IMG/VR virus record: IMGVR_UViG_3300025913_000018
From: a virus
Taxonomy: Duplodnaviria > Heunggongvirae > Uroviricota > Caudoviricetes
Length of the DNA stretch: 64,000 bases
Strand: one strand, 5' to 3'
This document shows, piece after piece, positions 3,274 to 51,416 of the stretch (its first letter is position 1; each line of letters starts with the position of its first letter). The position numbers and the translations under genes were made by a program. The notes beneath the pieces were generated by a model, which made no database searches, had not been told where the DNA came from, and saw only the letters and a program-made list of their open reading frames with translations.

Positions 3274-3456
3274 TCAAGCGGTACGGAAGAAGACGAGGTG
3301 GGGTTGATCGTTCGAGATCTTCCCCTCGTACCAGACTCGCCCCGTCTTCAGCGTGTCGATCGCGAGGTCGACTCGCGAATCGGCGGCCTGGTGGCAGCGG
3401 AGGTACTTCTTTCCGCTGCCACACCAACAAGGTTCGTTACTGCCTAGAGGCTTCAT
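3274..3456 (-). CDS. SEC-C motif zinc-binding small protein (60 aa)
   Basis: NEPCWCGSGKKYLRCH fits SEC-C. ATG at 3456 overlaps the upstream TGA (ATGA coupling). Confidence 0.8.
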   Translation of the reverse strand: MKPLGSNEPCWCGSGKKYLRCHQAADSRVDLAIDTLKTGRVWYEGKISNDQPHLVFFRTA

Positions 3457-5624
3457 CCGCCCCCCAGGCTGGAGAGGAAGTCCGCCCCCGGATCTTCCTC
3501 CTTCATCGACTCGACCTTCTCCCCTCGAATCCACGAGTTGACCTTCGCCGCGAGGCTAGCGACCGACTCCTGAGCGTCTAGCACGAGCCGTCTCTCCGTA
3601 GGGAAGTAGTTGGCGAACTTCGCGCTCTTCGTCTTCCGACCCTTCAGCCAGGTCGCGTTCTGATTCGATCCCCGCTGCTTCCGACGAGCCTCTACGACTT
3701 CCTCGGGGGCGAGGAGGAGAACCACGTACGGGTCCGCGCTCTCGTCGATCCTCGTCTTCTTGTTCATGTCCGAGAAGCGATCGCCGTCGAAGATCGTGTA
3801 GGGCCTCCAGAGGAGGTTCGCCTCCCAATACGTCAGCGTGGGGCCGACGTCGTGGCTGACCGTGTCGCCTCCGTCGAAGGTCCCGCCCGTGTAGTGACCG
3901 GCCAGGACGAAGTCCCGAGCGATCGTCCACTTCTGGTTCGGGACGAGTTCGAGAGGGACGTCTCCGACGATCGCCCGTACGAGGGTCGTCTTCCCCACCC
4001 CGGGCTCCCCTACGATCCAGATCGCCTTCGGACGGGGTCCGGTGTAGGTCGAGACTCGATGGCCGTCTGCAGCCTTCGAGGGGTCCCTATCGTACTCCTG
4101 CCCGGCCTCGACGTAGGCCTTCGCCTCGGCTTCTCTCTGCTCTTTCGAGGGCGGATTCTTCCGGTGCGAGGCGATGTTCTCGTTCGCCTTCTGGATCGTC
4201 TCCGAGGCCGGCTTCCCGGTCCACTCTTCGAGGTGCTTCATGATCCTCGCGTCTTCGGCGTCGCGAATGGATTCGACGGCCTTCGCCTCTATCTCCATTT
4301 CCGAGAAGTCTTTCGAGATCTCAGTCATCATGGACTTGAAAGCCGGGGACTTCTTGAGGGACGAGGGCTTCGAAGCCGGAACCTCTTCGGCGGGAGGTGC
4401 TTCGACCCCGAAGAAGGCCAGGAACTCGTTCTTGTGGGCCTCGTCTGCGGCGTCCTTCGCTACGAGGTTTGCGTGGCGCTCCTTCGGGTTCTTGAAGCGA
4501 GTGTCGAAGAAGTTCTTCTCGCGGACCTTCTCCTCCGAGACGGTTCCGCACTTCAGCATGTCGACTCGGACGTAGCAGACGACCGAGATCCGCTCCCAGT
4601 TGTCCTTCCCCTCGACCGCCGACTTCATCTCCGTGTTCCCGTGCCACTCGTGGACGTCCATCCCGAGGAAGTCCCCGGTCCGGAGGTCGACGGCGCAACG
4701 GTACTTCGGGAAGATCGTCCGGCCGCCCTCGTACTTGTCCTCGCCTTCGAGGACGGTGAGGTTGCCGAAGCCGTTCGGGAGGTCGCCCGCGTCCTTATGG
4801 ACGCCCGTTCGGTAGTTCTTGTTGACGGTGATCGTACTGAAGACCGTGTCCCCGATCATCCACCCCTTCTTCGTGAGGGAGTCGGTGACGATCGACTCGA
4901 CACCCTTCTGGACGGAGACCTCGTCCGAGACGAACTGGCGTTGGTTCTCCCAGCGCTCCGGGATGCACTCCTTGTACTTCACGTTGATCGCTTCGAAGAA
5001 CGGGATCGCCATCGCGAACTCGGTCACGTGTTCGCGCGTGAAGGCGGTCTGGCGGCAGTAGGGGTTTCGCGGCGTCCAGTTGAAGTTGCCGACGATCCCG
5101 CTGAGGACCTGGTTCGACTCGCTCGTGTTCGAGATGTGACCGTCTTCGGTGAGGTAGCCGGCGGTCGAGCCCCCTCGGCTGATGAAGCGAGAAGGATCCT
5201 TCCCGAGCCCTTCGGCAGTTGCGATCCCCGCGGCCATCCCGCGATTCTTCGAAGTCCCGGCGGCCCGGCGGAGGATCCCGTAGGCCGGATCAGTGATCCG
5301 CTTCGGGAAGACCTTCTTCCGGAGGCACATCAAAAGACGGCTCTCGCGATCGTCGAACGGGTTCTCTACCCCCTCCACGACCTTCTTCATCGGCTTGTAG
5401 ATGTCGACGTCCTCGTTGTGGGCGAGGATCACGTAGGCCGAATCGTCGAGGAAGTGTCCCCCGAGCTTGTCGGTCTCGACGTCGGAGAGGACTCCCTTTC
5501 CGGTGAGCTGGATCTGGAGGACGCCGTCTTCCGGACGCTTCCACTCCCACCACTCCAAGCCGTCTCGGTTCTTCAGTTCGGCGAAGTCGGGATGGGGGGG
5601 ATCGATGAACTCGTTTTCTGACAT
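3453..5624 (-). CDS. TET/JBP-family 2OG-Fe(II) dioxygenase fused to a C-terminal P-loop nucleotide-kinase-like domain
   Basis: FSTITVNKNYRTGVHKDAGD (HxD), HEWHGNTE (distal His), WERISVVCYVR (2OG Arg). C-terminal WIVGEPGVGKTT Walker A, GHYTGGTFDGGD and IFDGDRFS. Confidence 0.85.
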   Translation of the reverse strand: MSENEFIDPPHPDFAELKNRDGLEWWEWKRPEDGVLQIQLTGKGVLSDVETDKLGGHFLDDSAYVILAHNEDVDIYKPMKKVVEGVENPFDDRESRLLMCLRKKVFPKRITDPAYGILRRAAGTSKNRGMAAGIATAEGLGKDPSRFISRGGSTAGYLTEDGHISNTSESNQVLSGIVGNFNWTPRNPYCRQTAFTREHVTEFAMAIPFFEAINVKYKECIPERWENQRQFVSDEVSVQKGVESIVTDSLTKKGWMIGDTVFSTITVNKNYRTGVHKDAGDLPNGFGNLTVLEGEDKYEGGRTIFPKYRCAVDLRTGDFLGMDVHEWHGNTEMKSAVEGKDNWERISVVCYVRVDMLKCGTVSEEKVREKNFFDTRFKNPKERHANLVAKDAADEAHKNEFLAFFGVEAPPAEEVPASKPSSLKKSPAFKSMMTEISKDFSEMEIEAKAVESIRDAEDARIMKHLEEWTGKPASETIQKANENIASHRKNPPSKEQREAEAKAYVEAGQEYDRDPSKAADGHRVSTYTGPRPKAIWIVGEPGVGKTTLVRAIVGDVPLELVPNQKWTIARDFVLAGHYTGGTFDGGDTVSHDVGPTLTYWEANLLWRPYTIFDGDRFSDMNKKTRIDESADPYVVLLLAPEEVVEARRKQRGSNQNATWLKGRKTKSAKFANYFPTERRLVLDAQESVASLAAKVNSWIRGEKVESMKEEDPGADFLSSLGGG

Positions 5625-5685
5625 GGCTACCTCTTACGCGCGCGGTTTCGAAACTCTACTCACAAACAGCGAATTCAGTCGCGCG

Positions 5686-15710: not shown

Positions 15711-16168
15711 ACCCCCGATACGCCCTTCTCTGACTTGAGGCCCAACTCCTCGCCGGGCTTCAGCAGCGTCTTCGCGTACTCCACGAACTTCGGATCGTCT
15801 CCCTTCGGATCCGTACAGCGGACCGTCATCATTCGGTTGAACTCAATCGTCGCCTTCAGTTCCTCCCGAGTCTTGGGGGCGTGGTCCGCCTCTTCGTAGG
15901 GAACGAAGTCGCCGAAGGCCCTCCACTTTTGGAGGGGCTCGGGGTCACTCATCTCCCACATGAAGGCTCGCCCCGAGTTGATGTTCCTCATGTAGAAGTC
16001 GACGTCCGAGTCCCACCCGGAAGACTCCAGGAAACCGATGAACCGAAGGGCTGCCTCTTCCGACCCGTCCGCCAAGACGTAGTAGGAGATCTCGCGCATG
16101 ATGTCGGCGCCCGGCAACTTCTCTCCGAGAACCGCTACCGCTGGTGCGTAGCCTTCTTCGAGCTTCAT
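15707..16168 (-). CDS. Hypothetical protein (153 aa)
   Basis: ATGA coupling to the giant gene. Confidence 0.65.
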   Translation of the reverse strand: MKLEEGYAPAVAVLGEKLPGADIMREISYYVLADGSEEAALRFIGFLESSGWDSDVDFYMRNINSGRAFMWEMSDPEPLQKWRAFGDFVPYEEADHAPKTREELKATIEFNRMMTVRCTDPKGDDPKFVEYAKTLLKPGEELGLKSEKGVSGV

Positions 16169-19100
16169 ACCTTCGCTGTACCCTTCACCATCGCCAGTAG
16201 CCGGGCCTGCTCAGCTCGACGCCTCGGAAGTTCGGCGTCGAAGCGGCGGATCGCTTCAAGCGTACCCGTTACACGATCGGCCCGAAGGGTCAGCCAAGCC
16301 CAGCGAGAGTCGCGGAGCTTGTCACGTTGCTGGAGAGCTTCCTCGATTCGATCCGGAAGAACCGGGCGACCCACCCCATTCGCGAAGTCCGCGTACGGAA
16401 CCGCGAGCGAATGGTAGGGGGGTCGGAGGTAGTCGAGCCGGAAGTCGAGCCCCCAGAAGCGACGATCGAGGATGGAGAGACAATCCTTGTCGTTCGTGAA
16501 GGGACTGAGCTCAGTGCGACCTTCGATGTCGTCGATCAGGGCGCCTGAGAGAACCCCGAGGCCAGCGAAGGGATCGTCCGGGTCCCCGACGTCCGAGATG
16601 TGTTGGTCTCTCTGGAAGACGAAGTAGGAGCCGCCCTTCCGCGTTTCGAAGAGGAGGAGAAGCTCTTCGATCCACGAGAGGATCCTCTCCCGGTTCGCGA
16701 GGATCAGTTCTACGGTCTCGGCCGTGAGGAACGAGGTCGGCCGGATCACACGGTAGGCGAACGGCGCGATCGAGAGGAAGTTGCTCTTGAAGGAGTTGGT
16801 CGAATCGGCGAAAGCCGTCGGGCGAAGATCCATCTGACCTTCGAGACCGTCCGCCGTCCCGGAGAGGTTCGAACCGTGGACTGTCGGGTAGATCGCATAC
16901 TGGTCGTCGAACACGACGTCCCCACCCGTTCGGTTCCCGGCGAGGGTTCCGCCGTAGGTAGAAACCCCGAGCGTCGAGGGCGATACGGTCTCGATCTCGT
17001 AGTAGCCTCGATTGTCGTCGGTACGGAGGGGCGATCCCGGGTCGTAGAAGGGCGCTCCGCGGGGGAGGACGCCCTGATCGCCGAACGGCCGGGCTCCGGT
17101 CTCCGAGGTCGGAGGGAAGCCCGTAGGGCCGCGGAGGACCCCCGCCGGGTCGATCACGAGGATGTCTCCCTTTTGGATTCCGAGGGAGGCGAAGTCAATC
17201 GTGGGGTCAGTGTCTCGGAGGAGGTTGATCGACTGATCGTAAGCGACCTGTAGATCCGGGTCCGAGACGTAGTTCACCTTCCCGCCCGTCTGGGCGACGA
17301 GATCCGCTCGACGGTCGAGAAGAACCCGGTCCGTGGCGAGGGCGAGAAGCTCCTCCGCGGATTGCTCCTGGGGGATCGGAGCGGACCGGAGGTAGATCTC
17401 GAACCGGGTCCCGGGGGCGACCGAGGGCAACGAGTTCTTCGAAAGCGTCAGCGTCTTCCCGTCAGTCTCCACGACGAGGATCTCCGCTTCCGCAATCACT
17501 TCCCCCGAAACTCCGAGGAACCGGACCTGGTCCCCAGAACGGATGTTCTGATCCGGAAGAGTGAAGTCACCGAGTTGAGTGGCGGTCCCTCCGGCGAGCG
17601 GGAGAGGCGGGACACTAGAGTCCACCGGACGCGCCGTGAGGAGACCGGCGGTCCCGGTGGAAACGAAGCTGTCGACGATCCCGCGACGGATCTCATACGT
17701 GAACCGAAGACGTTCGATCGCCCCCACGACCATGTCCAACTGGACGTGGAACCGACGGATTCGACGTACCTCGACCTGAGCCACTTCGAGGTAACTGCCT
17801 CCGACTGGTCCGCCGGAGGGGAGGTACGAAGTCGCGTCTCGCGTTCCGATTTCCGAGAACGTCAGCGAGTGAGCCGCATCCACGACGTTCACTCGGGGCG
17901 CACCCAGATCGTTCCCCGAAAGAGGGAACGACGGTTCGACGTAGATCCCATTCTGAGCGTGGTAGCGGAGATCGAAGAGGTCTCCGGGGAAGAGGCAAGC
18001 TGGTCCGGCGCCGTGGATCGCGGCCCAGTTGAATCGAGTGACGTCGAGAGCGCCGGGGATGTTGTCGTAGACGGGGATGTCGAGCGAAGGAAGGAACGAA
18101 GTGGAGACCACCTTCACCTTCGAGTACACCGCAAGCGTTCCAGCTCCCGGACCGACGACACCGGAGAGGGTTCCGGCTGAGGCGTCGTACGAGACCGATC
18201 CGAACGGAGCGCGCGATCCGGTCACCGTGCGGAAGCCGAAGTAGAATTCCGAACCCGCCGGGGGCGAAGGCCAGAGCGTGACGCCTGGGTAGTTCAACGG
18301 AACGCCGGCCCCTACCGGCTTCACCGGAAGGATCGTCATGCCCGAGACGGGTGTCCCGTTCGTCGCGGCGGCCTGGAAGGCGGAGAAAGAGATCGCTCCC
18401 CCCACTCCATCTTGGAAGTTCGAAAGGCCGAGGAAGCGATTCCCCGGAAGGTCGAGGGAAGTGTACGACGCCGAGACCGCGGCTCCTGCCGTCCCTACCA
18501 CCGACTCGTCCACGATCAGGTAGACGCGTCCGGTCGCCGGGAACGCAGAGGTAGCCGAGACGGGCGTGTTGTTGAGGTCCTGGAGCGGGACGAGAGGAAG
18601 GAGGGACGTGACGGTGAGGTTCGGGGAGAGGTCGAGACCGACAACAGTCGGGAACTGGAAGTCCAACCAACCGCCCGGAGATCCTGCCGCCCCCGAGAGA
18701 TCGAGACGGTGTCCGGGAGGAGTCGAAACCGTAGCGGCGATCGCTCCGCGAACGAGGTACGTCCCCGTCTTCCCCGAGCCCACGGGGATGGAGAGACCGA
18801 GAGTGGGGTTGAACTGGCCACGGATGAACGCGACATCTCCGGGCTGGATGCGGTCCAATCCTCCCGCGTGAGTCGCGAAGGGAAGGAACGCGTTCTCGTT
18901 GAGGAACGAGAACGGAGCGCCCGGGCCTCGGATCTCTCCCGCGATCACGGCCCCGTCGTAGATGGGTCCCGCCTCATCCTGACGCGAGGAGGGAATCGCG
19001 GTGAAGAGAACCCCAGTTGCGTCGATCGGAACGTTTCCTCGACCCTCGAACCCGAGGACACGAAGCGTCCCCGAGTTGGCGGAGAAGGTTCCCACTCCGT

Positions 19101-22100
19101 TCACCGAGGGGAGGAGCGTCGAGCGCGTTGGGAAGGTGAACGGAAGGCCTGCGTTCACCGCAACGATGTCGTTACTGGTGTTGTCGAGGATCGTCGCAGT
19201 GAACGTGTTCGAGTCGATCACTGCGGAGGAGAACGCGTGGGTGGAGAGCTGGCACTCCATCAGAGATCCACCCGGGAAGGACGGGTGAGTGAACCCACGA
19301 GGGAGAGCCGTCCGGAAGTCGACACGATCTCCGAACGTCAGTCGATCTTCCCCGATCGAAGCCGTGTTCCCAGCGAAGGAGAGAACGGAGATCGTGAAGT
19401 CGTGGAACCCGTTCGTTGTCGTGACGCCGACCGGTCCGACCACCGGATCGAACGGAGTGAAGTTGAAGAAGACGTCGGGAGCGGTCGTCTTCACGACCAC
19501 CTGACTCGTCAGGAAGTAGAACCCACCCGCAACTACCGGAACGAAGGTGGCCCCGTCGTCTCCGGAAGCCTGGAAGGTGCTCCCGAGGATCCCCGAGCCC
19601 ACCCCGACCTTTCGGATGATCACGCCAGCTCCCGGGACGAATTGACCCGAGGTCTTGTCGATCAGACGGATCCTCAGCTCGCTGCCCTTCCCGTTCGATC
19701 CGAAGATGTCGTTCAGCCCACCGATCGGAGTGGGGAGGACTCCGCCGCCCAAGCCATCGTCGAAGACGATCGAGGAGGTCCCCACAGAGGTGACATCGAA
19801 GGTCGTCTCGGTCGGGATCAGCGTCGTGTCCTGCTTCACGACGATTCCCGCGGCGTACGCCGGGTACCCCACCCACGAGATCGCGTTGTCCGTGAGATAC
19901 GAGAAGGTAGAGAACCCCGCGTTCACCGGTGAGACGAAACGGGGAAGGTCGATCTGATTCGGAGCCCCCGACGTGAAGTTGGCGATCGAGTGGATGCCCG
20001 TGGCGCCGAGGGGGAAACCATCCGTGCCTGGTGTGGCCGGGTTCGGAGCCTGGATCATGAGGAGGTCGAACGGCTCGACGTTCCCCACCCCTCCGTGTCC
20101 CGGAGGAGGCGGGTAATCCCCGGAGGTCGTACCCCTCAAGAAGTCCTCGAAGGAGGCGAGGGTGGCCAGTTGGGCCGGCGCTCGGGAAACGGCCCCGTCT
20201 CCGGCCAACGTCTCGTCCGGGTAGACCGCCTGGGTCGCGTACGGAAAGACGAACGGGCTCGGCGGAGGGGGCGGAGGGTTCGGGCTGTCGATCAGAACGA
20301 GCGTCGAGAGACTCGACGAGGCCGCGCCGAGGAGTTCCAGCTCGGTGGTCGGAGATCCGTAGTAGGGCAACGAGTAGTCACCCGAGTCAAGAGTCTTCCC
20401 GCCGTCGAGCGCGGGGAAGCGAGTGGGAAGACGATTCCCATTCTGGAACCGAACGACCGCTTCCAACGTGGACAAGGGGCTCGGCGGGTTCTGGCCGGTG
20501 ATCTCCTTCAGGCCGAAGAGAGTCGGATCACTGAACGAGGGAAGCGTCGCGTCGGTCAGCTCACCGGTCCGCGAGGAGTAGTTGAGGTCGGTCCCAGTGC
20601 GATACGTCGGGGTGGTCGCGACGTACGTCTGAAGCTCGGCGATCGTGGGGGGGTCCGAAGGTGTCGCGACGACCGATCCTGTCCCCGTGACGACGAAGAC
20701 AGTATCTCCCTGCTCAGGGTCGAAGATCGAGCCCGAGGCGGGTCCGGTGAGTGAGAGAACGAGATTCGGGTCCGTCACCGGAACGTCGGCCCCTGAGAGG
20801 TCGACGCTCTTCAGCGTGATCACACACCCCTTCAGAATCGTGTCGACGAAGATCCCCGCGTAGCGGAACGCCGATCCGACCGGAAGAAGCGTTCCGCCGT
20901 AGCCGAGGCCGGCGGCGTTCCCCGCCGGGTAGCCGAGAGCCAACTGGGCTCCAGAGGCGAAGGGGGGCGTGTGGAGGTCGGGATCACCGGTGAGGAGATC
21001 GTTCAGACCCGTCGGCGTCGGAGTGACGCTCTGGGACGCGAGCTTCGAGGTGTCGGGAAGACCCGTATCCGAGAGAATCGGGAAGTCCACGAGCGAGAGA
21101 GGCGTCGCGATGATCGAGGGACGTCCCGTCGAAGCCGGGTCGACGTCGGGGAATCCAGTGGGGCTGTAGGCCCAGATTCTCGCCCGAGCGAGGCGCCCGC
21201 GCGCCTGGACACCCTGGACGTTCTGGATCGGCCCGAGGACCGGATTCTCCAGCTGACCGATCGTGGAGTTCGTCGTCGAGCGGATCGAGAAGGGGGCTCC
21301 GTAGAGGAAGCCGAGCGGATCGAAGCCGAACTTTCCGGCCGAGTAGACGCCCGGGGCGCCCGTAGCTTCGTCACCGTCGAGACCGGGGCCGAGGGTCGTG
21401 AAGCCCATCGTCTTCTCAGGGAAGAGACGGGAGAAGGGACTCGCTTCGCTCTGGCTCGCGTAGAGACCGAAGGCGGTGACGCGGAAGGTGATGAACCCGG
21501 AGAGCTTCCGTTCGACACCCGTACGGGTGAGGAGGGCGACGTCATCCACGTCGTTCTTCGCGAGGATCTCCTGGTAGTCCGTGAGCGCCGAGAAGGACGA
21601 CGGGTCCTGGTAGGTACCGACTGGGCGCCCGTTCGAGTCGAGGGACGTCGAGAGGGGGTCAGTGATGGGGTCGGTCGCGAGGAGACGGATCGTCGGAAGA
21701 CCTCGGCGGGCCGACATCCACGCGTCGAACCAGAGCACGCGCGGGTTCAACGCACCGGTGATCTCATCCTCGTAGCCCGGCGGGACCCATGGGTCGTTCT
21801 TCCCGATGTAGAAGCGAAGCTTCCCGTCTCGCTCTCCTACGAGCGCTCCGTTCAGCGTCTCTTCGATCTGTTCGAAGGAGGAGATCGTGGAGTTGTAGAA
21901 GCCGAGGAACGCTCGGGCGGCCCGATCGCGATCGAGAAGGTTCTGACGCTCGGTGACGAGGCCCGCGCGCCCGAAGTCCGAGTTGGACTTCGAGGTGTTC
22001 GAGGAGATCGTGGGACCGTTCGAGGGCTCGCTCGCCGTAGCCTGCTTCTGAAGGTCCGTCGCGACCTCTCCAACGAAGTCCAGGAACGGTTGGGCCTTCA

Positions 22101-25100
22101 CGTAGAAGGCGTCCGGGCTCTCGAACGTGTACGTGGCCTGGAGGACTCCGCCCTGACGCCCGTTCGCCTTCGAGGGCGGATCGGTGAAGTGGAACCCGCT
22201 CGACACTCTCGGGTACTGGACCTCGCCCTTGTAGAGGAAAGGTCCGATCGAGCGCGTGTCCGTACGTGAGAAGACGAGCTTCTGGTTGGAAGAAAGACCG
22301 GCCTGGCGCGGCGCCGTGAACGAGAGATTCCCATTGTTCGGGGAGACCGTGTAGTCGGGACCCTGAACGAGGGTTCGGCCCGGGAGCGCATTCCCGTTCT
22401 CGTCCTTCTCGCCGAAGAGCACCACCTCGGTCGGCTCGGTCGGAAGGAAAGGGGAAGTCCCCAAGAACGCCGTTGTGCCTTCGGGGTAGATCGGACGAAC
22501 TGAGATCTTCACCGAGTCGTTCGCGATCGTCGAGGACCAAGAGAGGTTCTCCTGGATCGGAGAAGCGACCGTCACTGTCGTGACGCGGCCGTCCGAAGAG
22601 AACTCCCCCTTCACGATCGCGAACGGATTCCCGAACAGTTCGAGCAGGTGTCCAGCGACCGCGTAGCGGGTGAGGTCCCCGTCGAACTTGATCTCAACCT
22701 GACCCTTCGTAACGGGCTCGAAGTGAGGGGTAGCGGAGAGACCGAAGGCGTCGGCCATCGTCGGAAGGAAGCCCGAGTTCGTCACGATCGGACGATCGGT
22801 GAGGAGGCTGAGCGCGTTCGCTCCGGGGTTGAGGGAACCGGCCCCGTTCGGAGGAGCCGGGAAGACCGTCACCGTTGTGATGTCGGTCGTCGAATCGTAG
22901 AACGAGGAGACGACGTAGGTCGTGAAGGCTCCGACTCGAAGCGCCTTCCCGGCAACCACTTCTGAAGTGCGGTCCGTATCGAGAAGGAAGATCGCCTGAC
23001 CCTTGTCGAGGCGGAACGGAGGACGCCAGACCGGCGGGTTCGAGACCGTGTAGGAGGTCTCACCGCCGAACGCTTCGTACACGGCATACGAGATCGTGAC
23101 CTTCGTCGCCGAGTCCACCTCGTCATTGAAGGAGATCGTGTTGCGTTCGAAGTCGACCGTACACCCCTGAGGGACCCCGTAGGTCTGCTGAGTCGCCCCC
23201 GTGTACACGGAGGGAGGGACGAGCGGATCCGTCGTTCGACCCGTGGGGTTGAACGAGTAGAGCTGGCTGGAGATCCTTGTCGCTACTTCAGCGCGGATGA
23301 AGAGCGGAAGGAACTGCTTGATCTGGACCGGGTTCCCGTTCGTGTCGCGGAAGAGGTCGCCCGTGTTCGGGACCGCTCGGAAGTAGGTGACCTCCACGAG
23401 CTGTCGCTCTCGAATCGGATTCGCGAGGAAGGTGAACGAGCCGAGGACGGGGTTGACGGTCGCGTCAGTCGTGCCCTCGACCGACAACTGTTCGACGAAG
23501 TAGACGGGCTTCCCGAGGTTCGCGTTGAGGTCGACCGCGGACAATCCGATCGTCCCGCTGTCCGGATCGATCTCCGCTTCTCCTGTCGCGAGGTCTGCGC
23601 TCGAAAGGAGCGTCTGGACGTAGGAGACCGTGGAAGCCGCGTACGAGTCGAGCAACCCGCTGTTGAACTTCAGCTCGCCGGTCGTCGTGAGGTACTCGAT
23701 CGAGACCGGATCCGAAGAGAACGTCGCGACGGGAAGGAGGTCGACGCCGTTCGCGAACTCGGTCGTACCGATTCGAAGGTTGAAAGCTCCTGACGTGAAG
23801 CGTACCCCCGTCGTCGGGACGAAGAGCTTTCCGTTTGCGATCGCCCCAATCTCCGACCGAGTGAGGACGGTGAGGGCGAGATCGACGCCAGTCTGTGTGA
23901 TCCGGGCGAAGATCGGACGGCCTCGGACGATGTCCTTCGCCGCGTCGGCATTCGCGAGAGCCCCGCCCGCGACTCCGAGCGGAGTCAGGACGCGGATCGA
24001 GAAGGGCTCCTCCGCGAGGTGGTTGAAGGTCTGGTAGACGACGTCAGCGACGATCGATGGGTCGATCTCCGACGTCGGGGCACCTCGGTAGATCTCGTAC
24101 GAGACGTTGACCCCGCCGTCCCCTTCGATGAAGTGGGGGGAGATCTTCACGGCGGAAACGAACACGTCCTCGATCTCGTACGAGCCCTGTGCGTTGCCGG
24201 AAATGACCTCCAGGCGATCTCCGACCGCGACTCCTGCCGCTACGAAATCGAGATTCGTGTCCGTGAGGACCCCTCCGCCGGACACGAAGCGACCGCGCGA
24301 TCCGGAAGCGAAGAGTTCCCCTACACGAGTGATCAGGACGGCTTCGCCGGTGGCCCCGTCCTTCGTGAGAAGGAAGTCCGACCCCGGCTCCAGGTAGGAG
24401 AACGAACCCCCGTCCTCCGAGACCCGAAGGAACCCATCCAGAGGAGCGATGAGACTCTCCGGAAGAACTCCGGCCGAGCCGAGGTTGATGCTGGCGATCG
24501 GAGCGTCAACCTTCGCCGTCCCGCCGTTCGCCGAGATCCAGGCGAACTTCTTGTCCTCGAAGAGGTACTGGACGTCTTCCCACGGCTGTAGCGGAGACCC
24601 GATCACCGGAGCGACGCCGGGAGCCCCGGCTGCGGTGAGCGAGAAGAAGACCCCCTCGTCGTACCCCGCGATGTCTTCGCGCGGGGCGTAGTCCAGGAAC
24701 TGGAACACGACGGGGTTGATGTTGTCGGTGAGCGTCTGGTCGCTGAGCCGGTACTTGTCGGAGTAGTCCGGGACCGGCTGGGAACCGTCGAGATCTCTCG
24801 GCGATCGGTAGAAGCCGAACTCGCCCCCGTAGTCCGGAAGCCAGTTCGCGTCGGATGCGCTGAAGTCGCCCGGAGGCGAGACCACCCATCCCGGAACGAA
24901 GCCGAGGGCTTCGGCTCCGCTGAGGTCGAGCGCCCCGGCGGAGCCGAAGCCGATACTGACGAAGCCTGCTTCGAGGTCATTGTGGGCGATCGTGATCCGA
25001 CCCGAAAACTCGTACGCACGCCCCGGGGCGGAAGCTGACTGGATCGCCGTGTTGACGCTCGCCGCCACGGTCGCTGCGGGGAACGTACCGGCTCCGAGGG

Positions 25101-27072
25101 CGCTCGCCGCCCATGTCACCGACGTCGCCCCGATTCGGAAGCGAAGCGATTCGGCCCCCTTCAACGTGAAGGAGTCCTGGAGACGCGAGAAGAGTCGAGC
25201 CTTCTCGCCGTAGCTCGAAGGAACGAACTCTCCTTGGCGGAAGTAGATCGGCTTCCCCGTGAGCTGCTTCCTCGGAACGCTTCCGAAGAAGACCAAGGAA
25301 CCCGCGCCGGGCCGCTTTTGGAGCGAGACGTAGGCGACGTCGCCCGGAACGCGGAACGCGTCGGTGGGCAGTTCATCTTCGAAGGAGACAGCGATCGTCG
25401 TCGTGACCGAGCGCCCCTCCGAGAAGAGGATCACGTCTCCGATTCCGGAAGAGAGCGCTCGAACGAGACCCGTGGTGCTAGGTCGAGGCGTCACCGTTCC
25501 GGGGACGGGTGCGTTTCCGACCTTGTCCGGAACGCTCAGGATGCCGGAGACCCCGAGACCGGGAAGGGTTTCCGCGTCTGGGACGAAGACCTCGTGGGCA
25601 GGATCGTAGCTCGTCACCGGAGTCCCGGACGAATCCACGAGCAGGACCGGAGCCTTCAGTGGCTGAGCGTAGAGGTTCAGCGAGACGCCGTCGTAACGAA
25701 CGACCGCGCCGAGGTAGAGCTTGTCGAAGCTCGGGTTGGGGACCGAACGCGTTCCAGGATCGGCCTTCTCGACGTCGGCGGTCGACAAGACCAACCGCCC
25801 CGTGGAGAGCGCGAAGCCGACCTCACCTTCGAGGATCGAGGCCGCGAGAAGGTCCGCCTCCGTGTCGAACGGACGAGCTACGAGGGGAGCCCGATTCCCG
25901 AGTCGAACGATCGGACGCTCACCCGGGCCCGGAACCGGAGCGAGGAAGAGGGCCCGCGTCTTCGCTTCGAGGAGACCACCCACCACGCCATTCGACTTCT
26001 CGGCGTAGACGCGGGGGACGTACCAGACCGTTTCCCCTTCGTACTTCTGGATGAAGTCCGGATTCCAAGCGATCTTCCCCGACGAGACCCCCACGACACC
26101 GGCCAGCGGCGGAGTTGCGAGAGCGAAGTTGTAGGCAGCCGACGCGAGGTCGTCCGGAACGACGCGAACCCCCGAGAAGTCCCCCGCCACTCGATCGACC
26201 ACCGGGTAGGAGTTGGCGTCTGGTTCCGGACCGAGACGGATCTGAGCGTAGGCGTCCCCCAACGAGGAGCCTGGTAGACTCATCCCTACGGCCGTCGTCG
26301 GTCTCGGGTCCAGGACGTAGGAGCCACCGCCGCTCGACAAGGCTCCGAGGCTCGTAGGAGCGCCTCCGCGGTAGGGCTCCCACTTCTGGGTAGCTCCGTT
26401 CCAACCGAAGCGACGCGAGTAGGCGTCGTTCCGCGTCCACCAGAACCGAGTCGCCGAGACCCAATAGGAGACCGCTACGATCGAATCCCCACGCGTTCTG
26501 GAGAGCGCAGGAAGCGCCGGGTTCACCGGACGCGTTGCCGCGAGCGTGTTGGCCGTCGGGAGGAGGGAGATCGACCCCGAGCCCGGACGGAACGAGAAGT
26601 CCCCTCCGGTGAGAGTCAGGACGTAGACGGTGGGGGAGTCGCCGCGACGGACCGAGAGCGAGACAACCCCCGCGAGGTCGCGCCCGCCGTCGTCGGTGAG
26701 GACGATGCGTCCGGATCCGTCCGCGTCCTGACCCGTGGGAGACGCTGGGTCGAGGACGAGAAGAGAGCCCGAAGGAATCGTCCCCGTCCCCGCGTCGATC
26801 GCCCACTGAGGGCCTTCGAGGGTCGTGATCGTACCAGTGTTCGCCGCCCAGACCAGGAACTCTTGCTCGCTTCCGAGCGCCGAGTCCAGGACGGCGACAC
26901 GGTACTGATCGGCGCGCGCTTCTACAAGAGAGGGTCCGCCAGTCGGATAGAGGGAAGGGTCGAGCGCGGTGACGTCGCGCGCAACCCCCGAGTCCGCCGG
27001 AGCGCTCGTAACAGCGTTGGAGGGCGAGGTCTTCGCCCCACGCAACACGAAACCCTCAAAGAAATCCGACAC
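16165..27072 (-). CDS. Giant putative virion protein (3635 aa; baseplate/tail-associated)
   Basis: Uninterrupted 10.9-kb ORF, Gly/Ser/Thr/Pro/Val/Phe-rich and Cys-poor, as typical of beta-rich virion proteins. No enzyme motif recognised. Confidence 0.75.
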   Translation of the reverse strand: MSDFFEGFVLRGAKTSPSNAVTSAPADSGVARDVTALDPSLYPTGGPSLVEARADQYRVAVLDSALGSEQEFLVWAANTGTITTLEGPQWAIDAGTGTIPSGSLLVLDPASPTGQDADGSGRIVLTDDGGRDLAGVVSLSVRRGDSPTVYVLTLTGGDFSFRPGSGSISLLPTANTLAATRPVNPALPALSRTRGDSIVAVSYWVSATRFWWTRNDAYSRRFGWNGATQKWEPYRGGAPTSLGALSSGGGSYVLDPRPTTAVGMSLPGSSLGDAYAQIRLGPEPDANSYPVVDRVAGDFSGVRVVPDDLASAAYNFALATPPLAGVVGVSSGKIAWNPDFIQKYEGETVWYVPRVYAEKSNGVVGGLLEAKTRALFLAPVPGPGERPIVRLGNRAPLVARPFDTEADLLAASILEGEVGFALSTGRLVLSTADVEKADPGTRSVPNPSFDKLYLGAVVRYDGVSLNLYAQPLKAPVLLVDSSGTPVTSYDPAHEVFVPDAETLPGLGVSGILSVPDKVGNAPVPGTVTPRPSTTGLVRALSSGIGDVILFSEGRSVTTTIAVSFEDELPTDAFRVPGDVAYVSLQKRPGAGSLVFFGSVPRKQLTGKPIYFRQGEFVPSSYGEKARLFSRLQDSFTLKGAESLRFRIGATSVTWAASALGAGTFPAATVAASVNTAIQSASAPGRAYEFSGRITIAHNDLEAGFVSIGFGSAGALDLSGAEALGFVPGWVVSPPGDFSASDANWLPDYGGEFGFYRSPRDLDGSQPVPDYSDKYRLSDQTLTDNINPVVFQFLDYAPREDIAGYDEGVFFSLTAAGAPGVAPVIGSPLQPWEDVQYLFEDKKFAWISANGGTAKVDAPIASINLGSAGVLPESLIAPLDGFLRVSEDGGSFSYLEPGSDFLLTKDGATGEAVLITRVGELFASGSRGRFVSGGGVLTDTNLDFVAAGVAVGDRLEVISGNAQGSYEIEDVFVSAVKISPHFIEGDGGVNVSYEIYRGAPTSEIDPSIVADVVYQTFNHLAEEPFSIRVLTPLGVAGGALANADAAKDIVRGRPIFARITQTGVDLALTVLTRSEIGAIANGKLFVPTTGVRFTSGAFNLRIGTTEFANGVDLLPVATFSSDPVSIEYLTTTGELKFNSGLLDSYAASTVSYVQTLLSSADLATGEAEIDPDSGTIGLSAVDLNANLGKPVYFVEQLSVEGTTDATVNPVLGSFTFLANPIRERQLVEVTYFRAVPNTGDLFRDTNGNPVQIKQFLPLFIRAEVATRISSQLYSFNPTGRTTDPLVPPSVYTGATQQTYGVPQGCTVDFERNTISFNDEVDSATKVTISYAVYEAFGGETSYTVSNPPVWRPPFRLDKGQAIFLLDTDRTSEVVAGKALRVGAFTTYVVSSFYDSTTDITTVTVFPAPPNGAGSLNPGANALSLLTDRPIVTNSGFLPTMADAFGLSATPHFEPVTKGQVEIKFDGDLTRYAVAGHLLELFGNPFAIVKGEFSSDGRVTTVTVASPIQENLSWSSTIANDSVKISVRPIYPEGTTAFLGTSPFLPTEPTEVVLFGEKDENGNALPGRTLVQGPDYTVSPNNGNLSFTAPRQAGLSSNQKLVFSRTDTRSIGPFLYKGEVQYPRVSSGFHFTDPPSKANGRQGGVLQATYTFESPDAFYVKAQPFLDFVGEVATDLQKQATASEPSNGPTISSNTSKSNSDFGRAGLVTERQNLLDRDRAARAFLGFYNSTISSFEQIEETLNGALVGERDGKLRFYIGKNDPWVPPGYEDEITGALNPRVLWFDAWMSARRGLPTIRLLATDPITDPLSTSLDSNGRPVGTYQDPSSFSALTDYQEILAKNDVDDVALLTRTGVERKLSGFITFRVTAFGLYASQSEASPFSRLFPEKTMGFTTLGPGLDGDEATGAPGVYSAGKFGFDPLGFLYGAPFSIRSTTNSTIGQLENPVLGPIQNVQGVQARGRLARARIWAYSPTGFPDVDPASTGRPSIIATPLSLVDFPILSDTGLPDTSKLASQSVTPTPTGLNDLLTGDPDLHTPPFASGAQLALGYPAGNAAGLGYGGTLLPVGSAFRYAGIFVDTILKGCVITLKSVDLSGADVPVTDPNLVLSLTGPASGSIFDPEQGDTVFVVTGTGSVVATPSDPPTIAELQTYVATTPTYRTGTDLNYSSRTGELTDATLPSFSDPTLFGLKEITGQNPPSPLSTLEAVVRFQNGNRLPTRFPALDGGKTLDSGDYSLPYYGSPTTELELLGAASSSLSTLVLIDSPNPPPPPPSPFVFPYATQAVYPDETLAGDGAVSRAPAQLATLASFEDFLRGTTSGDYPPPPGHGGVGNVEPFDLLMIQAPNPATPGTDGFPLGATGIHSIANFTSGAPNQIDLPRFVSPVNAGFSTFSYLTDNAISWVGYPAYAAGIVVKQDTTLIPTETTFDVTSVGTSSIVFDDGLGGGVLPTPIGGLNDIFGSNGKGSELRIRLIDKTSGQFVPGAGVIIRKVGVGSGILGSTFQASGDDGATFVPVVAGGFYFLTSQVVVKTTAPDVFFNFTPFDPVVGPVGVTTTNGFHDFTISVLSFAGNTASIGEDRLTFGDRVDFRTALPRGFTHPSFPGGSLMECQLSTHAFSSAVIDSNTFTATILDNTSNDIVAVNAGLPFTFPTRSTLLPSVNGVGTFSANSGTLRVLGFEGRGNVPIDATGVLFTAIPSSRQDEAGPIYDGAVIAGEIRGPGAPFSFLNENAFLPFATHAGGLDRIQPGDVAFIRGQFNPTLGLSIPVGSGKTGTYLVRGAIAATVSTPPGHRLDLSGAAGSPGGWLDFQFPTVVGLDLSPNLTVTSLLPLVPLQDLNNTPVSATSAFPATGRVYLIVDESVVGTAGAAVSASYTSLDLPGNRFLGLSNFQDGVGGAISFSAFQAAATNGTPVSGMTILPVKPVGAGVPLNYPGVTLWPSPPAGSEFYFGFRTVTGSRAPFGSVSYDASAGTLSGVVGPGAGTLAVYSKVKVVSTSFLPSLDIPVYDNIPGALDVTRFNWAAIHGAGPACLFPGDLFDLRYHAQNGIYVEPSFPLSGNDLGAPRVNVVDAAHSLTFSEIGTRDATSYLPSGGPVGGSYLEVAQVEVRRIRRFHVQLDMVVGAIERLRFTYEIRRGIVDSFVSTGTAGLLTARPVDSSVPPLPLAGGTATQLGDFTLPDQNIRSGDQVRFLGVSGEVIAEAEILVVETDGKTLTLSKNSLPSVAPGTRFEIYLRSAPIPQEQSAEELLALATDRVLLDRRADLVAQTGGKVNYVSDPDLQVAYDQSINLLRDTDPTIDFASLGIQKGDILVIDPAGVLRGPTGFPPTSETGARPFGDQGVLPRGAPFYDPGSPLRTDDNRGYYEIETVSPSTLGVSTYGGTLAGNRTGGDVVFDDQYAIYPTVHGSNLSGTADGLEGQMDLRPTAFADSTNSFKSNFLSIAPFAYRVIRPTSFLTAETVELILANRERILSWIEELLLLFETRKGGSYFVFQRDQHISDVGDPDDPFAGLGVLSGALIDDIEGRTELSPFTNDKDCLSILDRRFWGLDFRLDYLRPPYHSLAVPYADFANGVGRPVLPDRIEEALQQRDKLRDSRWAWLTLRADRVTGTLEAIRRFDAELPRRRAEQARLLAMVKGTAKV

Positions 27073-29239: not shown

Positions 29240-30076
29240 CTACAGGACCTCGATGCTACGGACTTTCACGTCCCTCGGGTTGAAGACGGCGACCTCGGGA
29301 ACGTCCGCGACAAGATCCGGCCCGTAGTACACGACCGAATCGAACCCCTTCGAGCGAGCCTTCCGAGCTTGGGCCTGGCTCTTCGTGATCAAGGGGTTTC
29401 GAACCGTAGCGACGACCGTGTAGACCTTCGGTCGGTAGATCTTCGAGTTGAGACCAATCTCGTCGAGCTTGTCGTACAACCAGCTCGGAGCGCCGGTGCT
29501 CTGGCTGAAGAGATTCGGGCCGTCGTCTCCCCCGAGAGGCTTTACCTTGCTCCCGATCACGTACGCGGCGACGTCGCTGATGGTGTTCGGGTCGACCCCC
29601 TTCAAGTAGGTTTCGAGCCCTACGACGTCGAGGCTGCCTTCTCCCGGCGGAGGATCTTCTCTCCAGAGACCTACGGCTTTCGGGAAAGTCTCCCACGCGT
29701 CGGTGCCCTCGTTACAGAGAGCCTCCATCATCGCTCCCGCCCCGGGGTTCTTCCGCTTCAGGTCTTCGATCAGGGAGGGATCGAAGCCGATGTTTCGGTT
29801 GGCGTTCGCATACCGCATCGCGACGCGCTTATCCGGGGTGAGGAAGATCCCCGCCCCGTAGAAATTCTTCACCAACTCTTCGCGGCTCTTCTCCAGAACG
29901 AAGGTCCGAAAGGTCTTCGTCGTGCCGTGATAGAGGGTGACGGGCTCGCCCTTCGCGAGACCCTCCAAGTTGTACTCGGAGAGATCGAAGGCGGTCTTCA
30001 ATAGCGGCAGGAGATCTCCACGAAGCTCAGGCTTCGCGTGGGCCAGTCGAATCACTCTTGAACGAAGGTCGCCCAT
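29240..30076 (-). CDS. ADP-ribosyltransferase-like protein (ART-PolyVal/HYE-type) with N-terminal IRLAH motif
   Basis: LYHGT, GAGIFLTP...AMRYA, GFDSVVY and PEVAVFNP motifs. Confidence 0.65.
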   Translation of the reverse strand: MGDLRSRVIRLAHAKPELRGDLLPLLKTAFDLSEYNLEGLAKGEPVTLYHGTTKTFRTFVLEKSREELVKNFYGAGIFLTPDKRVAMRYANANRNIGFDPSLIEDLKRKNPGAGAMMEALCNEGTDAWETFPKAVGLWREDPPPGEGSLDVVGLETYLKGVDPNTISDVAAYVIGSKVKPLGGDDGPNLFSQSTGAPSWLYDKLDEIGLNSKIYRPKVYTVVATVRNPLITKSQAQARKARSKGFDSVVYYGPDLVADVPEVAVFNPRDVKVRSIEVL

Positions 30077-33623: not shown

Positions 33624-34562
33624 TTAGAGTTCGATCTGACAAGCGTAGTGGGAATCGAGATCGGTCTTGTCGGGCTGACCCTCGTTCCATCCGTCGTCTC
33701 CCATCGCCGTTCGGTCCGGGCTCTCGACCGGACACGAAGGACGAGCAGAGTCTGTGGTCTCTACCCCATTCGGACGACCCACAAGAACCTTCTCTACATT
33801 TCCAACCCCCGAGAGCGGTCTCGTGTAGTGGATAGAATCCGCGGAGGGATCGACATTCTTTCGAATGACCTTGTCGACGTAAGCCGCACAGACTACGGGT
33901 GGCTTCACTCCCATGACGATCTTCTCTACCGCATGAGACACTTCGCCATATCTTCCCGGAACGTCAAAGCTCCTGGTCAGATAGGTCTTGATAGCGGATT
34001 TCCCTTCGGGACTTCCGTCTGAACCCATCAACCCCAGCTTCATCCCGAAGGGAGTCTTCTTCGAGACGACGAACGCGATAGGGACCTCATCCTTCTTGAG
34101 GACTTCCCAAGCGTCGTAATCCGAGACCATTTCTGAGGGCGAAGCTTTCGACAGACCGATCTTCCGGTAGGTCGCTTCGTACATCTTCCAGATCTCGTCC
34201 AGATACGAACCCTTCGCCACTGTCTCCCAACCCCCTCCGATTGAGGACGCGCTCTTCAAGAGCGGGAGAAGATATGGGCGAAGCTCGGGCTTCTCGTGAG
34301 CGAGTCGGATCGTCTGGGATCGGAGAGGGTCCTTCTTTGTCGTCCAGGTGTTCAGGTCCGAGATGAACTCGTTCACTTCGGCGAGTTCCGCCTTCGTGAG
34401 AGGACCCTTCACGTTTCGGTCGTTGAAGAACTCCCAGGCCTTCTCCGGCTCCCCTTCGTAGGTCGAGAGGCGGATGAACCAGTTGGCGTCGTGACCTCGG
34501 GGAAGGTGTTCACGAAGGATTCTTCGCCCTGCGATCTCGTCCGCTTTCTTCATCCCAGCCAT
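33624..34562 (-). CDS. Protein with internal IRLAH motif and a C-terminal domain of possible GNAT-like fold
   Basis: LRSQTIRLAHEKPELRPYLLPLLKSA at 34248-34325. The GNAT-like call is tentative. Start at MAGMKK inferred. Confidence 0.6.
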   Translation of the reverse strand: MAGMKKADEIAGRRILREHLPRGHDANWFIRLSTYEGEPEKAWEFFNDRNVKGPLTKAELAEVNEFISDLNTWTTKKDPLRSQTIRLAHEKPELRPYLLPLLKSASSIGGGWETVAKGSYLDEIWKMYEATYRKIGLSKASPSEMVSDYDAWEVLKKDEVPIAFVVSKKTPFGMKLGLMGSDGSPEGKSAIKTYLTRSFDVPGRYGEVSHAVEKIVMGVKPPVVCAAYVDKVIRKNVDPSADSIHYTRPLSGVGNVEKVLVGRPNGVETTDSARPSCPVESPDRTAMGDDGWNEGQPDKTDLDSHYACQIEL

Positions 34563-34584
34563 CTCACGAGAAGCCAATAGGACC

Positions 34585-34839
34585 TCAATCGTCCTCGGCT
34601 TCCTCCTCTTCGTCGTCGGTCTCTTCGAGGTCGTCGTCAAGATCGTCCGAGAGACTGGTCTCGTCGTCCTCGATCTCGGCTTCCTCGGACTCTTCCTTCG
34701 CGACCTCGGCGAGGGAGAGGGCGAAGGCCTTCAGCCACTTCTCGATAGACCGGTCCCCCTTCGGGAGACGATCGAACGCTTCTTGGATTCGGGCGTAGCG
34801 CTGATCTTCGATCCAGGCTTCGAATTCTTCTCTTGACAC
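34585..34839 (-). CDS. Small protein with a highly acidic C-terminal tail (84 aa)
   Basis: D/E-rich tail; SD GAGAGAAGG before GTG. Confidence 0.6.
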   Translation of the reverse strand: MSREEFEAWIEDQRYARIQEAFDRLPKGDRSIEKWLKAFALSLAEVAKEESEEAEIEDDETSLSDDLDDDLEETDDEEEEAEDD

Positions 34840-43603: not shown

Positions 43604-43786
43604 TTAAACCTTTGTCTTCTTGTGGTTTGCGTATCGGCCTCGAACCGTAACGCGCACCCGTCTCCCGCACTTTGGACAATCGGCCCTAAGATCAAGCCCA
43701 ACGTCTCCGGGAGATGGGGCCAGACGCCAGGGCGCGTCGCACGCGCCTTTCTGGAGAGCGACGAGCCGACGAATGTTGACGTCCAT
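43604..43786 (-). CDS. Small zinc-ribbon-like protein (60 aa)
   Basis: TGATG coupling to rtcB; CPKCG. Confidence 0.5.
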   Translation of the reverse strand: MDVNIRRLVALQKGACDAPWRLAPSPGDVGLDLRADCPKCGRRVRVTVRGRYANHKKTKV

Positions 43787-44994
43787 CAACCCTTCACGCA
43801 GAGGACTTGCTTGAGCTGGGCTTCGACCTCGACGAGATCCGTCTGGTTCTCCATGACGACGTCGATGTCCTTGTAGGCCGCCGGGATCTCGTCGATCACC
43901 GCCGCGTCCTTCCGACACTCGACACCGGACGTCTGAGCGATCACGTCCTCGACCTTGTAGAGCTTCTTCGCCGCCGCTCGACTCATCTTCCGACCCGCGC
44001 CGTGGGAGGCGGAGTGGAAGCTGTCCTCGTTCCCGAGGCCGCGAACGATGAAGGACTTCGTCCCCATGGACCCGGGGATGATGCCCATCTCGCCCTTCTT
44101 CGCCGAGATCGCCCCCTTCCGCGTCACGACGACGTCCTCTCCGAAGTGGCACTCCTCGGAGACGTAGTTGTGGTGACACGAGATCGGCTTCTCGAACCGA
44201 ACGGTCCGACCCTTCGCCTGGAAGAAGTCGCGGATGATGTCCTGGTAGACCTCCAGCATGACCCGGCGGTTCTCGGCGGCGTACCGCTGAGCCCAGTACA
44301 GATCGCGACGATAGTCCTCCATCTCCCTCGTCCCCATGAGGAAGACGGCGAGGTCCGGATCCAGGATTCGCGGGTCGTGGTTGTGGGTGAGCTTCTTCGC
44401 GATCGAGATGTGGATCTCGGCGAGAGTCTTCCCAATGTTCCGGCTTCCGGAGTGGAGCATCAGCCAGACCGAGCCCTTCGTATCGAGGCACAGCTCGATG
44501 AAGTGGTTCCCGCCCCCGAGCGTTCCCATCTGGCTCTGGGCGCGGCCGTAGAGGTCCTGGACCTTCGGGTGGAGGAGCTTGAACTCGGTCCACAGGACGT
44601 TCGTCTTTGCGTTGGCGTGGACCTTGTCTCGTCCGCCCTCTGGGCCATTGCCGACCGGGATCTTCGCTTCGAGGGTCGAGCGGATCTCGGAGAGCGAGAC
44701 CGGGAGATCGGAAGCGTCGAGGTCGGTCTTCACCGCCGCCATGCCGCAGCCGATGTCGACCCCGACCGCCGCAGGGGAGACCGCTCCCTTCATCGCGATC
44801 ACGCTTCCGACGGTAGCTCCGACGCCGAGGTGGACGTCGGCCATCGCCGCGACGTGATGGTAGACCCACGGCAGGGCCGAGATCTTCCGGAGCTGGGTGA
44901 GGGCCGCCGACTCGACGGTGGAGATGTCGCTCCACACCCGAACCGGAACGCCCGGGTGCTTCTCGTGGCCGCCCTTGATTTCTTGGAAAGACAT
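43786..44994 (-). CDS. rtcB: RNA 3'-phosphate/cyclic-phosphate ligase RtcB
   Basis: MADVH, VGVDIGCGM, GTLGGGNHFIE, HSGSR, HHNY, TRKGA, PGSMG, SASHGAGR and YKDI: all canonical motifs present. Confidence 0.95.
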   Translation of the reverse strand: MSFQEIKGGHEKHPGVPVRVWSDISTVESAALTQLRKISALPWVYHHVAAMADVHLGVGATVGSVIAMKGAVSPAAVGVDIGCGMAAVKTDLDASDLPVSLSEIRSTLEAKIPVGNGPEGGRDKVHANAKTNVLWTEFKLLHPKVQDLYGRAQSQMGTLGGGNHFIELCLDTKGSVWLMLHSGSRNIGKTLAEIHISIAKKLTHNHDPRILDPDLAVFLMGTREMEDYRRDLYWAQRYAAENRRVMLEVYQDIIRDFFQAKGRTVRFEKPISCHHNYVSEECHFGEDVVVTRKGAISAKKGEMGIIPGSMGTKSFIVRGLGNEDSFHSASHGAGRKMSRAAAKKLYKVEDVIAQTSGVECRKDAAVIDEIPAAYKDIDVVMENQTDLVEVEAQLKQVLCVKG

Positions 44995-51167: not shown

Positions 51168-51416
51168 CTACTCGTCGAGACGTTCGATCCGACGAGCGAT
51201 CAGGCGAAGCGTCTCGGCGACTTCCTTGTTGCCCTGAGGGCTGGTCGCCATGGTGCTCTCGTTCACCTGATCGTCTCCGATGAGGACGATCTTCCCGGTC
51301 TCGTCGAAGGCGATCGTCAGATCGAAGCGATGTCCGGCTTCGACACGGTCGTTCACCATGTGCAGGACGGGGATGTGACGGGGCTCGATGTAGTCGCTCA
51401 TCTTGTTCTCCTTCAA
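51168..51416 (-). CDS. Small hypothetical protein
   Basis: Coupled ORF. Confidence 0.6.
   Translation of the reverse strand: MKENKMSDYIEPRHIPVLHMVNDRVEAGHRFDLTIAFDETGKIVLIGDDQVNESTMATSPQGNKEVAETLRLIARRIERLDE

Follow-up and report, generated by a model that had tools for sequence, protein, structure and literature searches.

A 64,000-nucleotide stretch of DNA from a giant soil phage, the IMG/VR virus record IMGVR_UViG_3300025913_000018 (hereafter the window) carries a gene in which a TET/JBP-type DNA dioxygenase and a P-loop kinase are joined in one polypeptide. The gene is a single open reading frame (ORF) with an ATG start at positions 3453-5624 of the minus strand, and its 723-residue product, P0001, has the order dioxygenase, linker, kinase, an order shared by the orthologues P0002, P0003, P0004 and P0005. 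We consider it likely that P0001 is a bifunctional base modifier acting at the level of DNA, which would convert thymine (T) to 5-hydroxymethyluracil (5hmU) and then to 5-phosphomethyl-uracil on the polymer, and that a distant cluster with an amino-acid:DNA transferase (AADT; PF18724), if present, would complete the base. The analysis covers the 64 kb of the window, which is part of a 472,929-bp contig. Third-position GC is 0.86 over the full length of the ORF, which fits a coding frame in a genome of 61% GC.

On profile and model evidence, the N-terminal half of P0001 is a TET/JBP (5mYOX) DNA dioxygenase. The module comprises residues 1-390 (4455-5624, minus strand) and begins with a conserved N-terminal extension of ~160 residues. 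Pfam family PF12851 (Tet_JBP) matches a core at residues 184-353 (4566-5075, minus strand) with an E-value of 3.2e-21 and 75.7 bits, against a curated cut-off of 34.9, and PHROG 24024 (phrog_24024) spans residues 159-387 at 5e-73. These profile matches bear out an initial annotation of the window, made from the letters alone, which had recognized a 2-oxoglutarate (2OG)- and Fe(II)-dependent enzyme of the TET/JBP type from a set of short motifs. All of them are present: SGIVGNF (residues 175-181), RQTAFTREH (191-199), PERWENQ (222-228), FSTITVN (262-268), HEWH (325-328), WERISVVCYVR (343-353), and HKD, which falls at residues 276-278, exactly where it had been placed (4791-4799). P0001 thus contains both the HxD...H iron triad and the 2OG-binding arginine, the sites being H276-x-D278, H325/H328 (4641-4652) and R345 (4590-4592). 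None of H276, D278, H325, H328, R345 and R353 is substituted in alignments of 14 homologues. The AlphaFold model for residues 1-400, with a predicted local distance difference test score (pLDDT) of 82 and a predicted template modeling score of 0.82, supports a TET-type double-stranded beta-helix fold. When this model was compared with the PDB by Foldseek, the best 26 matches were all CMD1, human TET2, CcTet and NgTET1 (E 3e-11 to 1e-7), DNA-bound structures of the family included, and FTO and AlkB ranked after the TET-family enzymes. A sequence-profile search of the PDB with the dioxygenase profile gave no match.

The C-terminal domain, residues 531-705 (3510-4034, minus strand), is an intact P-loop kinase, most probably of the PF18751 (Ploopntkinase3) family, and a homologue of gp54 of Pseudomonas phage M6, a validated 5-hmdU DNA kinase. 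Its Walker A motif, GEPGVGKTT, lies at residues 539-547 (3984-4010, minus strand), and the GTFDGGD (581-587) and DGDRF (613-617) segments noticed in the initial annotation are likewise present. K545, D587, D613 and R647/R648/R651 are conserved within the kinase family, in which the Walker A lysine, the aspartates of the FDGxD and DGDR segments and the arginines of the lid show little or no variation. The domain and M6 gp54 both match phrog_800 at profile positions 30-211, at 8e-11 and 2e-39 respectively, while gp54 is placed by Pfam in PF18748 (HMUDK). A profile of the kinase family aligns with gp54 by hhalign at 96% probability (E 3.9e-9, 119 columns), over a region that runs from Walker A through the GHY/FDGxD segment and the DGDR strand into the first part of the lid. 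The predicted reaction would be the ATP-dependent phosphorylation of 5hmU in DNA.

Structural prediction and wider sampling agree with this assignment. The AlphaFold model of the kinase domain has a pLDDT of 92.4, and its Foldseek matches include UMP/CMP kinase, adenylate kinase, nicotinamide riboside kinase, Fap7 and other kinases; all 50 listed matches are small-molecule, nucleotide or tRNA kinases or near relatives of the kinase fold, with no AAA+, GTPase or ABC proteins among them. A match to a non-kinase ATPase, which had been set beforehand as the finding that would speak against a kinase, did not appear among those listed. Sequence searches of the PDB with the kinase returned matches confined to the Walker A motif together with full-length matches to adenylate and UMP kinases. 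An exhaustive phmmer search of 1.84 billion cluster representatives yielded 951 relatives of the domain at E<=0.001, most of them stand-alone proteins of ~180 residues, and 42 of 46 sampled relatives match PF18751 at E<=0.001 (best 4e-14). A PF18751 scan of related virus records missed kinases that the family profile found, so negative PF18751 scans are weak evidence. These kinase families were reportedly defined by Iyer et al. in 2013. In 5mYOX clusters described in the literature, too, the kinases are annotated as PF18751 (bioRxiv 10.1101/2025.08.14.668559, methods). [quoted passage not shown] As a separate matter of annotation, M6 gp54 (L001 16686-17249) is labeled "terminase small subunit" in its RefSeq record and in PHROGs. 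The mislabeled phrog_800 explains the odd "terminase" label on the kinase domain of P0001, and the error will spread to the automatic annotation of such kinases.

Between the two enzymes lies an acidic, helical linker (residues ~391-530; 4035-4454, minus strand). In the alignment of fusion orthologues it is poorly conserved, P0003 having a longer linker and P0002 a much shorter one, and it matches no Pfam family. An acidic linker of variable length without a domain match fits a flexible tether.

The fusion is not confined to one contig. Fusions of 658-789 residues with the same domain order occur in four further independent assemblies (Logan, JGI), and these proteins (P0002-P0005) are 46-58% identical to P0001. 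Since the same architecture is found in five independent assemblies, an assembly chimera or frameshift artefact is ruled out, and the metagenome survey that the initial annotation had proposed upholds a conserved fusion of a TET/JBP enzyme to a P-loop kinase. Three of the four further contigs (L003, L004 and L090) are giant-phage contigs syntenic with the window, sharing with it a giant protein of 3635 residues, proteins of 863 and 289 residues, and a baseplate module. Synteny at this level of identity indicates that the fusion persisted while the gene diverged. The 289-, 863- and 3635-residue neighbors were considered as conserved pathway partners, but their identities of 65-79% exceed those of the fusion gene (46-48%), and in L007 they occur together with a dioxygenase that stands alone; we therefore read them as core phage genes. 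The genes flanking the fusion on both sides have no Pfam match.

Other arrangements join the same families. Two proteins of ~1250 residues, P0006 and P0046, contain a kinase, ~400 residues of unassigned sequence, a dioxygenase and an AADT in that order. The element that encodes the kinase-dioxygenase-AADT fusion P0006 (L002 3662-7402) has genes for an integrase, RadC, a resolvase and a D5-type primase as well, a context which suggests that mobile elements other than phages carry the pathway too. In P0026 and P0106 the kinase is fused to a ParB-like domain. Together, the dioxygenase-kinase, kinase-dioxygenase-AADT and kinase-ParB proteins provide domain-fusion evidence that PF18751 kinases act with a DNA dioxygenase, a cooperation that is otherwise assumed from gene neighborhood only in the literature examined.

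Previous work provides a framework for these associations. The 5-HMUDKs are P-loop kinases that make 5-PmdU, from which AADTs displace the phosphate, and in some clusters a TET_JBP protein takes the place of the dUMP hydroxymethylase (Lee et al. NAR 2021, PMC8989533). P-loop kinases were also noted beside phage TETs (Burke et al. 2021, PMC8256090). Most recently, clade C1 of the 5mYOX enzymes was linked to ParB, P-loop kinases (PF18751 in the preprint methods), AADTs and GATases, and phage 5mYOXs of this neighborhood type were shown to be T-dioxygenases that act after replication (O'Toole et al. PNAS 2026, PMC13229309).

Our survey of loci encoding relatives of the dioxygenase (n=83; 80 from IMG/VR and three from assemblies) shows the same linkage. 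A kinase lies beside the dioxygenase on the same strand in 37 of the 83 loci and an AADT in 32 of 83, the latter detected with our own profile and confirmed by PF18724 at 8e-25. Viewed from the AADT side, 17 of 18 metagenome loci have the kinase and 16 of 18 the dioxygenase. The usual gene order is ParB, dioxygenase, GATase, an unassigned gene, AADT and kinase, and a ParB-like gene stands directly upstream of the dioxygenase in nearly all of L009-L084. ParB is absent from all eight of the closest dioxygenase loci (the window and L002-L008). One of these, L005 (a 266-kb virus contig), encodes the dioxygenase, kinase, AADT and a pyridoxal phosphate (PLP) enzyme as four adjacent, separate genes. 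A Pfam scan of the 60 ORFs of the window detected neither a glycosyltransferase nor a C5-methylase, in agreement with the initial annotation. The lack of a C5-methylase in the window and the linkage to kinase and AADT genes point to T rather than 5-methylcytosine (5mC) as the probable substrate of the dioxygenase.

Genes for later steps can lie far from the fusion. The AADT P0288, which is 67% identical to the AADT of L005, is encoded on the same 233,354-bp contig (SRR6262212_3773) as the fusion P0005, ~130 kb away from the fusion gene. It opens a tailoring cluster (L091 10001-13352) in which it is followed by a PanD-like pyruvoyl (Asp) decarboxylase (PF02261), an unassigned protein of 316 residues and a DAO-type FAD oxidoreductase. 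This combination of AADT, PanD-like and DAO proteins was not seen in the published clusters examined, and it could yield an uncatalogued thymine derivative. The distance of the AADT cluster from the P0005 gene indicates that the pathway can be split over two loci in this phage clade. No orthologue of the L091 region occurs in the 64-kb window. The initial proposal that a single polypeptide might constitute the complete hypermodification system is not sustained, given that a syntenic relative has later-step genes at another place in the genome.

We hypothesize that P0001 works as follows. Once phage DNA has been replicated, its Fe(II)- and 2OG-dependent dioxygenase domain would hydroxylate thymine there at the methyl group, producing 5hmU. 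The kinase, carried on the flexible linker of ~140 residues, would then move the gamma-phosphate of ATP to that hydroxyl, giving 5-phosphomethyl-uracil, which is the activated intermediate when phages hypermodify thymidine, and the fusion would hold the kinase beside the product of the dioxygenase. An AADT encoded elsewhere, with tailoring enzymes as in the syntenic relative, would most probably put an amino acid or an amine in place of the phosphate, and the finished base may serve to shield the phage DNA from host nucleases. The order from T through 5hmU to phosphorylated 5hmU, already proposed in the initial annotation, is favored by homology and gene context.

Several observations weigh against this reading. 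Residues 515-723 alone score 24.8 bits with PF18751, just below the curated cut-off of 27, although the kinase domain of the orthologue P0002 exceeds it at 29.2 bits. Pairwise BLASTP between the kinase domain and M6 gp54 found no significant match, and the link between the two kinases thus rests on profile methods; nor did we find biochemical data for any PF18751 kinase in the literature examined. P0001 has no ParB partner in the window, where a profile built from 75 ParB ORFs of related loci found nothing even at E<=10, and some ParB-less enzymes of clade C1 are reported to have been inactive in the assays of O'Toole et al. (PMC13229309). Finally, no AADT was detected in the window by tblastn with P0006 and M6 gp51, by an iterated hidden Markov model from related loci or by the Pfam scan, nor is there one less than 10 kb from the fusion gene of L003, L004 or L090. 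Among the best 120 of 262 relatives of the closest AADT clade, none is assigned to the 472,929-bp contig; on the matches listed, the genome of the window may therefore lack an AADT. For the 277-kb JGI contig that encodes P0004, no AADT was found among the 18 loci of the metagenome scan, a collection to which the sample possibly does not belong.

The AADT results could also be taken to mean that the fused enzyme is the entire system, performing the same two activities and leaving 5-phosphomethyl-uracil, or a turnover product of it made without AADT, as the final base of virion DNA. Small phages with ParB, dioxygenase and kinase genes and no AADT might do likewise. A candidate for such kinase-terminated modification is G004 (L087-L089; IMGVR_UViG_3300021185_002216), a phage record of 47,128 bp that CheckV estimates to be 100% complete. 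Its ParB, dioxygenase and kinase genes (22369-24567, minus strand) adjoin the terminase, and neither PF18724 nor our own profile detects an AADT in it. If true, this explanation would add a negatively charged base that is so far absent from the known end products of natural DNA modification. Against it, the syntenic relative with P0005 does encode an AADT cluster, the window covers only 64 of 473 kb, and the contig-wide result is limited to those best 120 AADT relatives. We know of no phage that keeps 5-PmdU as its final base. In published work 5-PmdU is treated as an intermediate (PMC8989533). We regard termination at the kinase step as unlikely, both for P0001 and for small phages such as G004.

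Two further explanations concern the individual domains, and to each we assign very little weight. The dioxygenase might act on 5mC as TET does, with the kinase phosphorylating 5-hydroxymethylcytosine, as was raised for some phage contigs with TET and P-loop kinase genes (Burke et al., PMC8256090). The nearest solved folds are indeed those of 5mC enzymes, there being no structure of a T-specific enzyme for comparison, but the sole DNA methylase of the window is of the N6/N4 type (51413-52249), AADT, an enzyme of the thymidine pathway, is found together with the kinase family, and the ParB-linked relatives of the dioxygenase are T-dioxygenases (PMC13229309); activity on 5mC is hence quite improbable here. 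Alternatively, the P-loop domain might be an NTP-driven activator or DNA clamp that replaces ParB, or a kinase of free nucleotides that feeds the polymerase, the second of which the initial annotation had left open. The distribution of ParB, missing from the eight closest loci and present in nearly all of the more distant ones, would suit a replacement, as would the existence of kinase-ParB fusions, and the fold resembles nucleoside monophosphate kinases. However, the domain has profile homology to a validated DNA base kinase, clusters with ParB hold the kinase in addition, so the two are not alternatives, and no dUMP hydroxymethylase-like gene is present in the window. The AADT domain fused in P0006 and P0046 argues for consecutive chemistry on DNA, and a family whose members are joined to, or encoded next to, enzymes that act on DNA (dioxygenase, AADT, ParB-like) is unlikely to work on free nucleotides. 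The DNA-level reading of P0001, with T as the substrate and a base kinase as the second activity, consequently remains the one we prefer.

The immediate surroundings of the fusion gene include several small features. The gene is preceded by a gap of 298 nt, the sole large gap in its gene string, and by a GCGTAAG box (5633-5639, minus strand) that stands 8 nt upstream of the ATG. At the other end, the ATG of a 60-residue ORF with a SEC-C zinc motif (3274-3456, minus strand; PF02810, E 1e-8) overlaps the TGA of the fusion gene in the sequence ATGA, so that this ORF appears to be translationally coupled to it. The SEC-C ORF is not kept in relatives, as L003, L004 and L090 carry other small genes in its place.

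Elsewhere in the window, the gene for the 3635-residue protein (16165-27072, minus strand) has no Pfam match at all; its product shares 71-77% identity with the partial giant proteins encoded next to the fusion gene in L003 and L004, and 39% with one from L007, and it may be a virion or injected protein. The N6/N4-type methyltransferase (PF01555, minus strand, E 1.6e-22) would, judging from its family, give the phage another DNA modification activity, independent of the first. An RtcB RNA ligase (43786-44994, minus strand, E 2e-121) is accompanied, at other places in the window, by Pfam matches to a HAD "Swiss Army Knife RNA repair" protein, a cREC_REC cyclic-phosphate receiver, a SpoU methylase and RNase_T, which together suggest an RNA-repair module. 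A protein with an ART-PolyVal ADP-ribosyltransferase domain is encoded at 29240-30076 (minus strand, E 1e-10), and short peptides from its N terminus, and from the N terminus of the protein at 33624-34640, turn up again in several proteins of the AADT region of the relative. A megablast comparison of 25 kb of the window with 50,697 phage records gave no match.

The initial annotation had regarded the architecture as without a described precedent, and this holds in part. Clusters with TET/JBP, PF18751 and AADT genes are published (PMC8989533, PMC8256090, PMC13229309), and the chemistry and gene set are therefore already known; the fusion itself was not found in those reports. In the literature examined, which does not include the 2013 work of Iyer et al., we found no dioxygenase-kinase fusion, no ParB-less form of it and no occurrence of it in giant phages. 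No TET/JBP enzymes were reported from the 224 jumbo phages surveyed in 2021 (PMC7824862), and set against that survey the fusion clade would mean that giant phages, too, can modify pyrimidines in situ. Because it appears to do without the ParB activator described in 2026, the clade could also be compared mechanistically with clade C1, as a natural relative that does not depend on ParB. If oxidation and phosphorylation by a single chain hold, P0001 would turn ordinary DNA into activated 5-PmdU DNA in one step and could serve as a labeling or sequencing reagent.

The closest known systems are the clade C1 T-dioxygenase clusters (PMC13229309; PMC8989533, Fig. 2, sequences 22-25). P0001 shares with them the dioxygenase family, at 38-43% identity to ParB-linked loci, most probably the kinase family (their clusters comprising a PF18751 kinase, AADT and GATase), the inferred order of steps and, in a relative, the AADT. 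Unlike these clusters, which occur in small and medium phages, P0001 belongs to a giant phage with a 473-kb contig, combines dioxygenase and kinase in one polypeptide without a ParB activator gene, and has no AADT adjacent to it, the AADT of the relative being 130 kb off. The kinase domain resembles the 5-HMUDKs (PF18748) of M6 (gp54), PaMx11, ViI, SP10 and PhiW-14 in its P-loop fold, its size of ~180 residues and its match to phrog_800, and the expected reaction, 5hmU in DNA to 5-PmdU, would be the same. It differs in its probable family, PF18751, and in lacking pairwise BLAST similarity. In the 5-HMUDK phages, 5hmU is made before replication by a dUMP hydroxymethylase (PMC5889632, PMC8989533). 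The 5-HMUDKs are either free-standing proteins or parts of fusions with PLP enzymes or AADT, whereas the kinase of P0001 is fused to a dioxygenase. As with kinetoplastid JBP1 and JBP2, hydroxylation of thymine in DNA by a TET/JBP-family enzyme would open a two-step modification. In the base J pathway the second step is glucosylation by a separate enzyme, and where JBP carries a J-DNA-binding or SWI2/SNF2 domain, P0001 carries a kinase. The matches obtained for P0001 include no JBP hydroxylase, either as sequence or as structure. P0006 and P0046 unite the same kinase and dioxygenase families in one polypeptide; unlike P0001, they place the kinase first and include an AADT domain, and P0006 resides on a mobile element instead of a giant phage.

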